This document shows, in pieces, positions 24,949 to 28,706 of a stretch of DNA of 64,000 bases. The translations under genes were made by a program, and so were the position numbers. Position 1 is the stretch's first letter. The number at the start of each line of letters is the position of its first letter. A model generated the notes under the pieces. That model searched no databases. It worked only from the letters and a program-made list of their open reading frames with translations, and was not told the origin of the DNA. The DNA is from a virus (Duplodnaviria > Caudoviricetes): positions 386 to 64,385 of IMG/VR virus record IMGVR_UViG_3300036851_000157; one strand, written 5' to 3'.

Positions 24949-25136
24949 TTTGCATTCCTTCTGTTAGGTCGAGAAGCTAAACCAAGCCTTTTTGCTTGGT
25001 TTGTAACAGCGGTTACTGAGACGTTGTACTTCTTAGCCATTTCTTGTCGAGGAAGGTTCATCGTCCAGTCTCTAATGAACTCTTCATCTCGACCAACAAT
25101 GCCTTGCCTCCTGCCTGGTTGCGCCATGTTCACCAC
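24945..25136 (-). CDS. Small HTH protein
   Basis: EMAKKYNVSVTAV...AKRLGL. Confidence 0.65.
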   Translation of the reverse strand: MVNMAQPGRRQGIVGRDEEFIRDWTMNLPRQEMAKKYNVSVTAVTNQAKRLGLASRPNRRNAK

Positions 25137-25144
25137 CTTAGTTG

Positions 25145-25400
25145 GTCCGATACGTAGTTTTTATGTATTGCCAAGCTTTCTTGAAGAAAACTCTTTAGAA
25201 TTCTCATTTCCAATACTTATTCTTAATTTTAGCGCGTTGAATAAGGATTTACGTACTGGAAACGCCTGATAGAGAAGAGTTTTTTCCAAAAATCTTGGCA
25301 GTATTGGACTGGCACTTGGATACTTAATTTTTGACGATTTCACGCGGTATACGTAAGTTGTATACGTAAAACATGAGTACGTCAAAAACGTGTCAAATCC
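25145..25400. other. AT-rich intergenic region, candidate replication origin
   Basis: AT-rich; imperfect ~30-bp inverted repeat (25165-25195 / 25277-25304); several TACGTA palindromes. Confidence 0.45.
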
Positions 25401-25401
25401 G

Positions 25402-28086
25402 TCAGAAGCCCAATTTTCCTGCTAATGCAGACTCATTGAAGCTCTTCTTCAACCCAAGAGCCTTAGCCACTGCCAAGTCGATCGCAGCCTTCGAAATGAG
25501 CCTGTAATAGTGCAAATCCGAAAATGACGTGTTCATTCTGTCAATTCTGCCGTGTGCTTGGTGCCAATTCTTGTACGAATACGGCATCGAATAGAACACA
25601 ATTGCGTCAGTCTCGGTACACTCCCAGGCTTCCGCCCCGGCCACATATTGAACAAGGTACACCCACGATGTGGTAGTGGGAACGTCCTCGTGTTTGTGTC
25701 CATTCCACTCCGCGACCTGAAATTGCGGCGTAGATCCAGAACCGTTGCCAGTCGAGCATGGGTCCGACAATGGTTTCGATGGCCTCAATAACGCTTCGGT
25801 ACTCGTCTTCGAGAGTCTGCCCGTGGGTGAGTCGGTATCGATCCCTGTTTTTGATGTACCGATCGCTAGCCTTGAGCCGTCCGAGGTCTTCGTATGCGCC
25901 GGTAGGTAACGGGTCTTCTGGTGTTTCTGACATTCGTCAGTCCTTTCTGCAATTACAGATGAGTTCTCCAGCATCGAGATGTCTCTTGAGATGGTTAGCC
26001 CTCTTCCATCGGTAGTAGAGAGTCTCTCGGACTGCTGCGTGTTCTTCTGATCCTTCTCGGAGAGATCTGAGGAATTTGATCTTGTCTTCGACTCGAGATC
26101 CCCAGACCCACTCTCCGAGCTTAGGGAATCCGTAGAACCCGATTGGCGGCACGTACAGGCCGTCGAAGAACATTCCTCCGGGTTGTTCTGACATTCCTCA
26201 GTCCCTTCTGACTGCTTCGACGTGGTAGTTCGGAACAGCGATCCACTCTCCGTTGAAGAAGACTCGGAAGTGGTCGATTCGGTCCCAATCGATGATGGGG
26301 TGTGTGGTACTGTCGGAAATGCTTTGGAACCACGCTCTGATGGCTCGTTGCTCGTCGTCAGTGAAATTTGTGTTGAGCACGAGCGGAGCCCATCGCAGGA
26401 ACATGTCGGTGTGGCTTTCTCCTGAGACATCAACCCATCGTGAACCGTCCCAGTAATGTCCGTCTGGAGCGGGTCTAGGTGCTGGGGTTGTCGTGAGGTC
26501 TCGTCCATCCTCTCCCGGGATGAGTCCAAGAGCCTCGAGCTCCATCCGGATGAGTTGTTGAATTCCTCGTCGGGTCCACTTCCGTTCACTGTCAACATAA
26601 TCGTACTCGGGTTTGTCGAGCTTGAGAGCAAGTCCAGGTCGTTCTGCTCCACAATTTGCGCAGGACTTGAGTGCCCAGAGCTCGATGGGGTTTTCCTTGT
26701 TGAGGAGTCGAGGACAGTAGTGTGTCCATCTTTCCCCATCAATAAGATCTCGTTCGTTTGTTGCCATTGGCCATCCTCCTGTGTTTTCGATGAATTCTTC
26801 CACACCAACAGGGAGTTCGCTCTCAGTCCCTCCGGACTCAGTAGGTACTCCCATGGGTCGCTTAGGGTTTGCTCCTCGCCACAGCTCTGTTTGAAGTTGT
26901 TCAGAGAGTCCTTCTCGCAGTCTGTCAGCAAACTCTCCATACTCGAGGTAATCGGGTCGTTCGGACACATCCGCCCGTCGTGCTCGATTCTGCAGAGTTC
27001 GCAGAAGTTCGTCTCCCCGAAGGTGCGCCGCGGTCCCGTAATAGTGGAGCTCTTCCCCTTCAGACATTCTCTACACTCCTTCTTCCCAATTGACGAGTCC
27101 TGCGACATCTTCGGAGATGATGCTGAATCGTGCTCCGTGATTTCGGACCAACTCGTATTGCGCGTCTGTGAGGGTGAACTCTCGTTCCACGTAGTCTCCG
27201 ACGTTGTCGCTCCAGACCTTTCCTCTAATAATGTGGGGTCGGCGAGGGTCCTCAGAATCTCCAACTCGTAGTCGAAGTTGTAGAAGACAATCAACTTCGG
27301 ATGCTTCTTCAGCAATGAACGAATTGCCGTCAATCGAGAAGCGTCGGTGTACACAACCTTGCGTAGGACACGGAACAGTTCCCCGGCGTCCTGAATAGGT
27401 CTGTTTTCTAATACATTCCATCTCTTGCTCACCAGCTCCTTTACTAGGTCTTTGTCAAAGTCAACTAGGATGTCGTGGTTGTGTCGGGTGGTGTGTCGCT
27501 CGTACGGCATGTCCACAAGGAGCTGGTTTCTCCAGCGGACGAGCTTCCCAACATTCCGGTAACGAAGGAGCTGGTTGTATCGACCAGTCCACCGATACAC
27601 GCAGTGATCATCCTTGAATTGCGTAAGATTCTTGACGAATCCATTTGCACGGAACACGGGCACGTAATCGAGCCAAGTGTCTCCCGGAGTTGCCGAAAGC
27701 ATGATCCAGTGATTGTTCTTGGCAATCTCATAGAATGCCTTAACCCAGGCACCAGTTCCGACAAGTCTCTGCTCGTCGAAGATGAAGAAAGCATCTTTGC
27801 GCTCCTTGTACTTGTCGATGTTGTTCCAGGAGTCAACCTCTACGACTGCTCCCATGGTAGTGTCTGGGTGTCGCGTCATCCCAATCTGCACGAAGATGTT
27901 CTGCCAATCGAACTTATCGCGCTTCTTGGCCGTAGTGATGACAATGATGTCCCGTGGTGCCTCGTTCTGAAGGTAGTAGCCAACCGCGGTATGGCTTTTG
28001 CCGACGCCCACACCCCCACAGAGGATGCAACCGTTGTGCATTTTGGCTACAGCCTTCTCTTGGTGTGGCTTCAGCTCGAAGGTCAA
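25402..28086 (-). CDS. SF2 (SNF2-like) helicase with a ~500-aa in-frame low-complexity insertion
   Basis: GVGVGKS, FDEQR, LSATPG at N-terminus; QY.AGAE, QAHGRIDR at C-terminus; Ser/Thr-rich middle. Confidence 0.85.
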   Translation of the reverse strand: MTFELKPHQEKAVAKMHNGCILCGGVGVGKSHTAVGYYLQNEAPRDIIVITTAKKRDKFDWQNIFVQIGMTRHPDTTMGAVVEVDSWNNIDKYKERKDAFFIFDEQRLVGTGAWVKAFYEIAKNNHWIMLSATPGDTWLDYVPVFRANGFVKNLTQFKDDHCVYRWTGRYNQLLRYRNVGKLVRWRNQLLVDMPYERHTTRHNHDILVDFDKDLVKELVSKRWNVLENRPIQDAGELFRVLRKVVYTDASRLTAIRSLLKKHPKLIVFYNFDYELEILRTLADPTLLEERSGATTSETTWNESSPSQTRNTSWSEITEHDSASSPKMSQDSSIGKKECRECLKGKSSTITGPRRTFGETNFCELCRIEHDGRMCPNDPITSSMESLLTDCEKDSLNNFKQSCGEEQTLSDPWEYLLSPEGLRANSLLVWKNSSKTQEDGQWQQTNEILLMGKDGHTTVLDSSTRKTPSSSGHSSPAQIVEQNDLDLLSSSTNPSTIMLTVNGSGPDEEFNNSSGWSSRLLDSSRERMDETSRQPQHLDPLQTDITGTVHDGLMSQEKATPTCSCDGLRSCSTQISLTTSNEPSERGSKAFPTVPHTPSSIGTESTTSESSSTESGSLFRTTTSKQSEGTEECQNNPEECSSTACTCRQSGSTDSLSSESGSGDLESKTRSNSSDLSEKDQKNTQQSERLSTTDGRGLTISRDISMLENSSVIAERTDECQKHQKTRYLPAHTKTSDGSRLAIGTSKTGIDTDSPTGRLSKTSTEALLRPSKPLSDPCSTGNGSGSTPQFQVAEWNGHKHEDVPTTTSWVYLVQYVAGAEAWECTETDAIVFYSMPYSYKNWHQAHGRIDRMNTSFSDLHYYRLISKAAIDLAVAKALGLKKSFNESALAGKLGF
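25607..25933 (-). CDS. Nested gene in helicase (-1 frame)
   Basis: GAAAGGA RBS; MSE start; C-terminus overlaps the helicase C-terminal domain. Confidence 0.55.
   Translation of the reverse strand: MSETPEDPLPTGAYEDLGRLKASDRYIKNRDRYRLTHGQTLEDEYRSVIEAIETIVGPMLDWQRFWIYAAISGRGVEWTQTRGRSHYHIVGVPCSICGRGGSLGVYRD
25937..26194 (-). CDS. Nested gene in helicase (-1 frame)
   Basis: AAGGGA/GAGG RBS; MSE start; normal protein composition. Confidence 0.65.
   Translation of the reverse strand: MSEQPGGMFFDGLYVPPIGFYGFPKLGEWVWGSRVEDKIKFLRSLREGSEEHAAVRETLYYRWKRANHLKRHLDAGELICNCRKD
26198..27067 (-). CDS. Nested gene in helicase (-1 frame), 289 aa
   Basis: GAAGGAG RBS; normal composition; HYC..CANC and APDGHYWDGSRW motifs. 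Confidence 0.7.
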   Translation of the reverse strand: MSEGEELHYYGTAAHLRGDELLRTLQNRARRADVSERPDYLEYGEFADRLREGLSEQLQTELWRGANPKRPMGVPTESGGTESELPVGVEEFIENTGGWPMATNERDLIDGERWTHYCPRLLNKENPIELWALKSCANCGAERPGLALKLDKPEYDYVDSERKWTRRGIQQLIRMELEALGLIPGEDGRDLTTTPAPRPAPDGHYWDGSRWVDVSGESHTDMFLRWAPLVLNTNFTDDEQRAIRAWFQSISDSTTHPIIDWDRIDHFRVFFNGEWIAVPNYHVEAVRRD

Positions 28087-28283
28087 GTGTTACTCTCTTC
28101 CATCCCAAGAGTTATGGGTAATCAACCACCCATAACTACCGTCTTCACGTTCTACAGGTTCGACAATGGGCAAACAGCCACAATCAATTGGTTCGTGGGC
28201 TATACAATCTTTAATCGGAACAACGTGTACTTCGTTGTCTACCATTCTTGTAACCCACATCATTTAACTCCTCAATGGGCTCC

Positions 28284-28475
28284 CTAGTGGTTACCTATCA
28301 GATACCGTCTGCGCATGTAATGTCTGCGCCACATGGCCGGGTCTCCGCGACTGTTTCTCCATGGAGAGTCGTTTCCATTCTTGTCGACCGGATCGCCATG
28401 CCACTTGTTAACGCAGATGAATTCCCTACCGCTTACTAGTTCTATGTAGTTGCAATTTCCCTCGACCACAGACAA
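28284..28475 (-). CDS. Hypothetical protein
   Basis: GGAGGAGG RBS. Confidence 0.55.
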   Translation of the reverse strand: MSVVEGNCNYIELVSGREFICVNKWHGDPVDKNGNDSPWRNSRGDPAMWRRHYMRRRYLIGNH

Positions 28476-28478
28476 TTG

Positions 28479-28706
28479 TCACCTCCTCCAACCAATCTTC
28501 ACGTCCGTAGCGTTTAGCAGCTTCTGCCAGGATTCTAAGGACCCCCGCACTCGCCCGTTGACCATCTCACTGATTGTGGATCGACTCAGTCCAGTAGAGA
28601 TTGACAGCTGTTGATAGCTCATTGGGCTACTGCGAACAGCTTCAGACAACACTCTTTGAAGTTGAGTCATGCGAACGGGTCGATCTCTAAAGTAATCTCC
28701 TGCCAT
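28479..28706 (-). CDS. XRE-type HTH DNA-binding protein
   Basis: MSYQQLS..TGLSRSTISEM.NG. Confidence 0.8.
   Translation of the reverse strand: MAGDYFRDRPVRMTQLQRVLSEAVRSSPMSYQQLSISTGLSRSTISEMVNGRVRGSLESWQKLLNATDVKIGWRR

Follow-up and report, generated by a model that had tools for sequence, protein, structure and literature searches.

A long in-frame insert in a soil phage helicase gene holds four nested open reading frames in the -1 frame

The 64,000-nt window analysed here (positions 386 to 64,385 of the virus record IMGVR_UViG_3300036851_000157, Caudoviricetes) is a single contig that covers nearly the whole 64,385-nt genome of a phage. Its minus strand carries an open reading frame (ORF) for a DNA helicase that is more than twice the length of its relatives, and the middle of this ORF holds four further ORFs on the same strand in another frame (Table 1). 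The long protein matches the PHROG 62 'DNA helicase' profile (E 6.4e-53), and its two ends match the helicases of about 395 amino acids (aa) encoded by Streptomyces, Arthrobacter and Gordonia phages (252 records, tblastn). In each of these 252 records the match falls into two pieces that together span about 1160 nt. The initial annotation, made from the DNA letters alone, expected homologous helicases of about 390 aa without the insert, and those of the Streptomyces phages ClubPenguin and Kardashian (about 395 aa) are of that size. The locus is a helicase of about 390 aa of superfamily 2 (SF2, XPB/SNF2-like) that is interrupted by an in-frame insert.

An AlphaFold2 model of the whole protein (67-sequence alignment) is confident on both sides of the insert, with a predicted local distance difference test score (pLDDT) of mostly 85-97 in the N part and 78-97 in the C part. 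Over residues 294-784 the pLDDT is below 50, with hardly any secondary structure. The model retrieved, with Foldseek, the motor cores of XPB, the archaeal Sso SWI2/SNF2 protein, CHD1, CSB and INO80 (E 3e-8 to 1e-5, about 350-390 columns). The confident core and these matches together indicate that the N and C halves form a complete two-lobe SF2 core. The motifs GVGKS, FDEQ and QAHGRIDR, which we take to be the Walker A, DExx-type and arginine-finger motifs, are invariant or nearly so across the helicase alignments. No Pfam family was found in the 894-aa protein at E<=0.1, an uninterrupted homologue reached only sub-threshold scores against Pfam DEAD, ResIII and Helicase_C, and a PDB sequence search with that homologue gave no match. 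Megablast of the locus against 50,697 GenBank phages returned only six matches of about 60 nt, all within helicase genes. The 64,385-nt genome has one helicase copy of this family; a second intact copy, which would free the interrupted one to decay, was considered and rejected because none is present.

Alignment to the ClubPenguin and Kardashian helicases places the borders of the insert between the helix ELEILRTLA(D) and the strand (QFQ)VAEWNGHKHE. The initial annotation described an interruption by some 500 stop-free codons rich in Ser and Thr, and the codons counted between LRTLA and VAEWNG agree with this. Read in the helicase frame, the insert has 31.2% Ser and Thr; the helicase proper has 9.5% and the nested ORFs have 10.4%. 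The third forward frame of the insert contains 18 stops, so the region is not merely poor in stop codons. Part of this DNA is open in a third long frame as well: a 271-aa ORF on the plus strand (26456-27271) runs antisense to the insert, perhaps as a by-product of the constraints on the two same-strand frames.

All four nested ORFs lie at offset 2 modulo 3 of the helicase, which is its -1 frame. They were found where the initial annotation had put them, joined by a stop codon, three nucleotides and an ATG, with the last three (ORF2, ORF3 and ORF4) starting as MSE. A purine-rich stretch stands ahead of each of these junctions. That other gene pairs of the genome couple by frame-changing ATGA/TGATG overlaps also proved right: a crude census of 81 minus-strand gene junctions gave 28 of the ATGA/GTGA type and 13 of the TGATG type (41 of 81). 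The arrangement of stop, three nucleotides and start preserves the frame and was counted five times; three of these are the nested junctions and only two are outside the insert, thus the type is rare there.

Table 1. Positions of the features of the interrupted helicase locus in the window (ORF list and stop map for the helicase ORF).
Feature	Position	Strand	Description
Whole helicase ORF	25402..28086	minus	894 aa, 0 internal stops
Helicase N part, aa 1-283	27238..28086	minus	RecA-like lobe 1 and first strand and helix of lobe 2; GVGKS, FDEQ
In-frame insert, aa 284-787	25726..27237	minus	1512 nt, 504 codons, stop-free, 31.2% Ser+Thr, predicted disordered
Helicase C part, aa 788-894	25402..25725	minus	Rest of lobe 2; QAHGRIDR motif
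Shine-Dalgarno-like stretch	27428..27441	minus	Purine-rich (AAGGAG ... GGTGAG), before the ORF1 start
Nested ORF1	27071..27421	minus	116 aa; first ~61 codons overprinted on helicase codons; ATG within R222-W223
Junction ORF1/ORF2	27065..27073	minus	TAG-AGA-ATG, frame kept
Nested ORF2	26198..27067	minus	289 aa; one His-Cys3 module (H-x-C ... C-x-x-C-G), conserved C-terminus
Junction ORF2/ORF3	26192..26200	minus	TGA-GGA-ATG
Nested ORF3	25937..26194	minus	85 aa
Junction ORF3/ORF4	25931..25939	minus	TGA-CGA-ATG
Nested ORF4	25607..25933	minus	108 aa; last ~37 codons overprinted on helicase C part

The openness of both frames is far from what codon shuffling produces. In one version of the test the nested proteins were held fixed and their synonymous codons permuted; in a second version the codons were drawn from the usage of the genome. 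By permutation, the helicase frame of the window was free of stops in 10 of 20000 trials (mean 5.6 stops), and with genome usage it was open in 0 of 20000 (mean 12.3 stops). For two related loci on other contigs, L003 and L004, permutation left no helicase-frame stop in 77 and 44 of 20000 trials, and genome usage left the frame open in 0 and 1 of 20000, respectively. The reverse test, in which the helicase-frame codons were permuted, gave a mean of 16-22 stops in the nested frame (21 in the window); the observed numbers are 3 in the window, 5 in L003 and 1 in L004, and these were reached in 0 of 5000 trials each. Chance openness, named in the initial annotation as an outcome that would tell against its reading, is therefore rejected, and its proposal that selection keeps both frames open is supported here and by the substitution pattern described below. 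Among 50 other genes of the genome, the same relative frame has 3.77 stops per 100 codons, with a longest open run of 201 codons. This run lies in the +1 frame of one of these 50 other long ORFs and is the next longest after that of the helicase.

Codon choice points the same way. Nested-frame NTN codons end in C in 63.6% of cases (39.3% in the genome), in A in 1.7% (7.1%) and in G in 18.6% (26.8%). The depletion of stop-forming codons that had been anticipated is thus seen: NTN codons ending in A or G are the ones that can form TAR or TGA in the helicase frame, and this shows that the nested codon choice is bent to avoid helicase-frame stops. Within the insert, the fit to genome codon usage is +0.19 for the nested frame, and -0.02 and -0.55 for the other two frames. 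A free-standing gene in L003 (8033-8299) serves as an internal control, with 7 stops in the relative frame compared with 0 for the nested ORF3.

We compared how the two frames change between related phages. Over the 1242 aligned nucleotides of the insert, the window and L003 differ at 30, 16 and 59 sites on nested codon positions 1, 2 and 3, which on the helicase codon positions 1, 2 and 3 become 16, 59 and 30. The differing codons are 47 synonymous and 40 non-synonymous in the nested frame but 20 and 70 in the helicase frame. The mismatch order of nested coding is repeated between the window and L004 and between L003 and L004, as well as in a separate clade (L035-L054, L007-L035 and L007-L054). 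Homologues of ORF2 were found (P0001-P0003 and P0124-P0130), and at 23-43% identity conserved blocks and conservative replacements are seen. This pattern of substitutions and the conservation of ORF2 demonstrate, at the level of the sequence comparison, that the -1 frame of the insert evolves as a protein-coding sequence, and that the insert must remain open in the helicase frame while its residues there are not conserved. The same data point to purifying selection on the second frame, though not clearly so in two other clades.

Large inserts at this site are not restricted to one phage. A search of 5.8 billion proteins returned 686 long helicase relatives of at least 491 aa. Among the 120 of these that were listed, 115 have 58-642 extra aa at the same site, and the insert is composed of 22-55% Ser and Thr in 114 of the 115 (the exception, P0115, has 10%). 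The other five listed proteins have an N-terminal extension only. An N-terminal extension of 122-184 aa annotated as PF10686 and unrelated to the loop insert was noted in P0028, P0079, P0081, P0092 and P0098, and also in P0086 and P0090.

Because protein lists hold only open frames by construction, we examined DNA loci. We scanned contigs from viruses and metagenomes, mostly with N-terminal helicase peptides as seeds, and obtained 164 loci with both helicase parts; these reduce to 148 unique helicase-region sequences (L085, with the N part only, was left out, and three loci whose helicase parts contain a stop or X were excluded from the alignment and the tree). An insert of at least 45 nt is present at this site in 32 of the 148 (45-1602 nt, at least 100 nt in 25 of them). 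Every one of the 32 inserts has a length divisible by three, is in frame and lacks helicase-frame stops. Of the 25 inserts of at least 100 nt, most have stops in the +1 frame, but L013 and L035 have none there. A further insert of 402 nt was found in a metagenome-assembled genome (MAG) of Marmoricola.

In the clade of the window (the window, L003, L004, L086 and L087; support 100), inserts are 849-1602 nt long and the nested frame is split into 2-6 ORFs, always in the same frame. Homologues of ORF4 are found in L003 (7225-7551) and L004 (6595-6924). The same architecture recurs in contigs of other soil samples, with module-level replacements and with the insert lacking in none, and in the runs X2, X3 and X7; the sequence was traced to seven soil-metagenome DNA runs, whose contigs attest presence and variants only. 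The window is a metagenome-derived genome, which would leave room for an assembly or sequencing artefact. The recurrence in independent contigs (L003, L004, L086 and L087), in these runs and in hundreds of predicted proteins is such that an artefact is, for practical purposes, ruled out. GenBank isolates (60 rows spread evenly over 370 records) gave single-piece matches of about 1150-1250 nt with no large insert.

Two side observations concern the wider family. Helicases of this family are also widespread among gut Clostridia, in prophage-like regions, and in other MAGs (L165-L244), where the site has 0 or 6-51 extra nt and no -1-frame ORF. Two loci, L021 and L094, have one and two stops in the helicase range, outside the insert, and may be decaying copies or alignment-end artefacts.

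The nested coding begins outside the insert. Neither the conserved start of ORF1 within the helicase, 61 codons upstream, nor the spread of the arrangement to many soil phage helicases had been seen in the initial annotation. The codon that the -1 frame presents at the helicase R-W codons is ATG in 23 of the 32 insert loci, GTG in 7, TTG in 1 and CTG in 1. Upstream of the insert, this frame has no stop over at least 58 codons in 31 of the 32, an openness that shuffling the synonymous codons of each helicase predicts in 3.5% of cases. Of the insert-free loci, 28 of 116 from soil phages and none of 77 from prophages (mostly Firmicutes) have the upstream -1 frame open. The start is preceded by a match of at least 5/6 to the Shine-Dalgarno (SD) consensus in 24 of the 32 loci with an insert and in 19 of the 28 open-frame loci that lack one, but in only 17 of 88 loci whose frame is closed. 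A programmed -1 frameshift that would fuse ORF1 to the helicase N part was considered and rejected, as no slippery heptamer is visible at the start of the insert and an SD-preceded start is present.

Where the insert is small, this first nested ORF continues across it and terminates 10-17 codons inside the helicase C part, frequently directly behind a C-x-x-C-G motif. This arrangement suggests, as a possible history, that a short ORF overprinted across the loop came first and that the loop expanded later. On this view, ORF1 of the window and ORF4, which stops 37 codons inside the C part, would mark the two ends of that overprinted-ORF arrangement. In the N-terminus of ORF1 (27240-27421), the first 60 or so overprinted residues keep Cys at about four positions in most insert loci, in the contexts M-A/E-C..., C-D-E-E-G-C and D-C-V/L-L-Q-L-R-L-R-A-G-D, which are not kept where the frame is closed. 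These positions could form a metal site encoded wholly by the wobble choices of the helicase.

The start codons and SD-like sequences also bear on a reading in which only the helicase frame is translated, the insert is a selected low-complexity Ser/Thr linker and the nested ORFs are compositional by-products. Such a reading would accommodate Ser/Thr-rich inserts of every size at the site, the low-confidence model of ORF2 and nested ORFs without known domains. We consider it highly improbable, given that the helicase-frame residues of the insert are unconserved (20/70) with an excess of changes at nested third positions, that permuting helicase codons gives 16-22 nested stops against the 1-5 observed (0/5000), that conserved blocks and conservative replacements persist in homologues with 23-43% identity, and that start codons and SD-like sequences are enriched.

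The initial annotation proposed two fates for the insert: the helicase tolerates a large disordered loop, or the insert is removed by RNA splicing, ribosomal bypass, protein splicing or proteolysis. The first is favoured by our results. Group I introns and inteins are frequent in phage genes, and the location of the insert, between conserved motifs of the helicase, is one that such elements typically occupy; with removal, an open frame would not be needed for read-through. Neither splicing of the RNA nor bypass would require inserts that are in frame and stop-free, as 32 of 32 are, and both are disfavoured for this reason. Rfam gave no match at E<=1 over 25000-28500 (no group I or II intron), Pfam found no intein Hint domain in the 894-aa protein at E<=0.1, and the AlphaFold2 core is complete around the insert. 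In every locus inspected the insert is followed by V or I instead of Cys, Ser or Thr, and its ends differ between loci, in line with the earlier remark that no intein termini are visible. The lack of a second copy of this helicase in the genome likewise points away from splicing. Proteolytic trimming of a disordered loop is compatible with the sequence. Taken together, removal before the helicase works is very unlikely, and a disordered loop that stays in the protein is the better account.

Pfam gave no match to the four nested ORFs of the window at E<=0.1, and tblastn of ORF2 against the 50,697 GenBank phages gave none at E<=1. The module H-x-C...C-x-x-C-G was found in 1-3 copies in nested proteins of three helicase clades in a motif census. 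A free-standing gene of 88 aa, located downstream of the helicase in a sister phage (L003:8033-8299), has a C-terminus that resembles nested ORF3 (47% identity over 38 aa of the C-terminal half of ORF3, pairwise E 5e-9), and the window genome has no copy of this type of gene outside the helicase. A different small nested protein recurs in the inserts of several helicase clades (L007, L035, L054, L068, L114 and L131), with a pattern of roughly C-x-H...C-x-S-C followed by an R-L/H-Y-E/K...W..VP tail; its distribution suggests an old cargo or exchange between inserts.

Several known systems share features with this locus. In tailed phages, embedded genes of the lambda Rz/Rz1 type lie within a larger gene, on the same strand in another frame and with an internal ribosome-binding site, but they are single genes that overlap over about 60 codons and the host-frame sequence is functional. 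In the helicase the overlap involves about 600 codons and four ORFs, and the host-frame residues are unconstrained. SNF2-family ATPases of the INO80/SWR1 type are, like the helicase, SF2 two-lobe motors with a very long insertion in the ATPase region, although their large insertions are structured docking sites without a second reading frame. INO80 is among the Foldseek matches of the helicase model. Kilobase-scale overlap has been described in Pseudomonas aeruginosa, where antisense ORFs of 957 and 1536 nt are long overlapping genes (PMC8850804). There, as in the helicase insert, a second coding frame under purifying selection lies inside an annotated gene, but the P. aeruginosa cases are antisense single ORFs in a cellular genome and the helicase insert is a same-strand, multi-gene, expandable loop in a phage (PMC8850804).

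The closest precedent for the architecture of the insert is the ShiLan domain (PMC11855218), in which one HNH endonuclease of 195 aa lies wholly inside a 202-aa insert and no ribosome-binding site was detected. Both are in-frame, stop-free insertions in a phage enzyme gene without intein or intron features, both are predicted to loop out, and both have the real ORF in the third (-1) frame on the same strand (PMC11855218). The helicase insert differs in having four ORFs over 1.8 kb with no detectable nuclease signature, in a first ORF that starts 61 codons upstream and a last one that ends 37 codons downstream in host codons, and in the presence of SD-like sequences. It also varies from 45 to more than 1600 nt at one site over a large family, and the host gene is the only helicase of its family in the phage. 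The same group reported inteins with out-of-frame or antisense homing endonucleases (bioRxiv 10.1101/2025.01.02.630785). These share with the helicase insert a translated in-frame insertion in a phage gene and an ORF in frame 3, but they possess splicing domains and are removed from the protein, and the helicase insert has no Hint domain or splice-junction residues (bioRxiv 10.1101/2025.01.02.630785). The helicase insert is a variant of the recently recognised out-of-frame gene inside an in-frame insertion; full-text literature searches, supplementary lists aside, gave no account of this helicase insert.

The ShiLan precedent raises the alternative that the insert is a selfish homing-type mobile element, with the nested ORFs encoding an unrecognised site-specific nuclease and helpers that copy it into empty helicase alleles. 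The open host frame would then merely make the invasion harmless, which contests the function and the in-situ origin of the nested genes and not the dual coding. The best helicase tree requires 14 changes of insert state, and the sister helicases L031 and L053 differ by a clean indel (66 nt and none). The module-level replacements between samples, the recurrence of His-Cys3 modules across helicase clades and the free-standing relative of ORF3 would also fit a mobile element, and ORF2 may be a divergent nuclease, its model being too poor for a fold search. However, a Pfam search of 37 nested ORFs from 24 loci returned no HNH, LAGLIDADG, GIY-YIG or other family, PHROGs gave nothing meaningful, and the first ORF begins 61 codons outside the insert at a conserved start. 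Insert lengths are wide and irregular in both the DNA loci and the proteins, and the content varies by clade. Inserts diverge faster than the helicase (only 227-272 nt are alignable between the window and L004) and were not found shared in near-identical form between diverged hosts. Tree support for many independent gains is weak as well, because the well-supported (starred) branches force only 2 of the changes. We therefore regard homing as unlikely, although less so than removal of the insert, and prefer the reading in which the nested genes arose in place.

Several results weigh against translation of overlapping genes in both frames. One insert locus, L150, has no long open frame upstream, and the 61 overprinted helicase codons show little additional constraint at synonymous sites (heterozygosity ratio 0.88, compared with 1.00 in controls). 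The nested coding pattern is absent in L086-L087 (8/11/18) and L145-L149 (5/7/5, both on helicase positions 1/2/3), pairs outside the window type in which little DNA is alignable. Related loci are not independent, with supported branches forcing just 2 insert-state changes, and an independent-pairs comparison of insert and open frame has only 3 supported pairs. The homology support for ORF2 probably comes from one lineage and from the same nested context, its family having only 9 representatives among 1.84 billion clusters. Pfam gave no match at E<=0.01 in the 37 nested ORFs, and PHROGs gave one weak match in 37 (head maturation protease, E 0.005) that we take as noise. An ESM Atlas search with ORF4 gave no usable match, and AlphaFold2 modelled ORF2 poorly (mean pLDDT 47.6, predicted TM score 0.21, 11 sequences). 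No RNA runs with the sequence are listed, which says nothing on expression, and the translation steps in both frames are ones that we infer from the DNA.

Statistics and comparative data strongly support dual coding of the insert region. We consider it probable that the helicase is translated straight through a long hypervariable loop insert, and that overlapping genes in the -1 frame are read from internal starts. As a surface loop of the second RecA-like lobe, the insert would separate the helix ELEILRTLA from the strand VAEWNG. Ribosomes that read through would make an enzyme of about 100 kDa without splicing, its core folded around a disordered, Ser/Thr-rich loop of about 500 residues. Other ribosomes would initiate in the -1 frame at the SD-preceded ATG within R222-W223, 61 codons before the insert, and translate ORF1. 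ORF2-4 would follow from the SD and ATG sites placed 3 nt after each stop, probably by coupling of termination and reinitiation. The products may be small accessory proteins, several of them with His-Cys3 zinc-ribbon-like modules, that are made alongside the replication genes; that they bind nucleic acid is a guess.

The region probably originated as a short overprinted ORF that spanned the loop and was enlarged in place. A broader and more tentative proposal, which we find possible but on the doubtful side, is that the helicase loop acts as a gene nursery. In a permissive loop, a short overprinted ORF would have expanded in place into a multi-gene operon in the -1 frame, partly through duplication of zinc-ribbon modules across the junction of insert and helicase and with the host frame required only to remain open, and the process would run in hundreds of soil phage helicases, with inserts of up to 642 codons. 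If true, the region would exceed in length every same-strand dual-coding region so far described in a tailed phage, and the process would give essential genes a general way to accommodate new genes that needs no splicing.

If both frames are translated, the locus is a multi-gene, same-strand overlap on the kilobase scale in a double-stranded DNA phage, a group usually credited with short overlaps only. An essential motor protein would carry a loop of about 500 (and up to about 640) residues that is unconstrained, the sole requirement being the lack of stops. The idea of an out-of-frame gene in an insertion would then widen from a single homing endonuclease to an expandable coding niche shared by a family. 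As gene callers report the long ORF only, nested phage proteins of this kind would be unannotated in many databases. The natural size variants of the insert would provide a series in which the birth of overlapping genes and codon choice in two frames can be studied.

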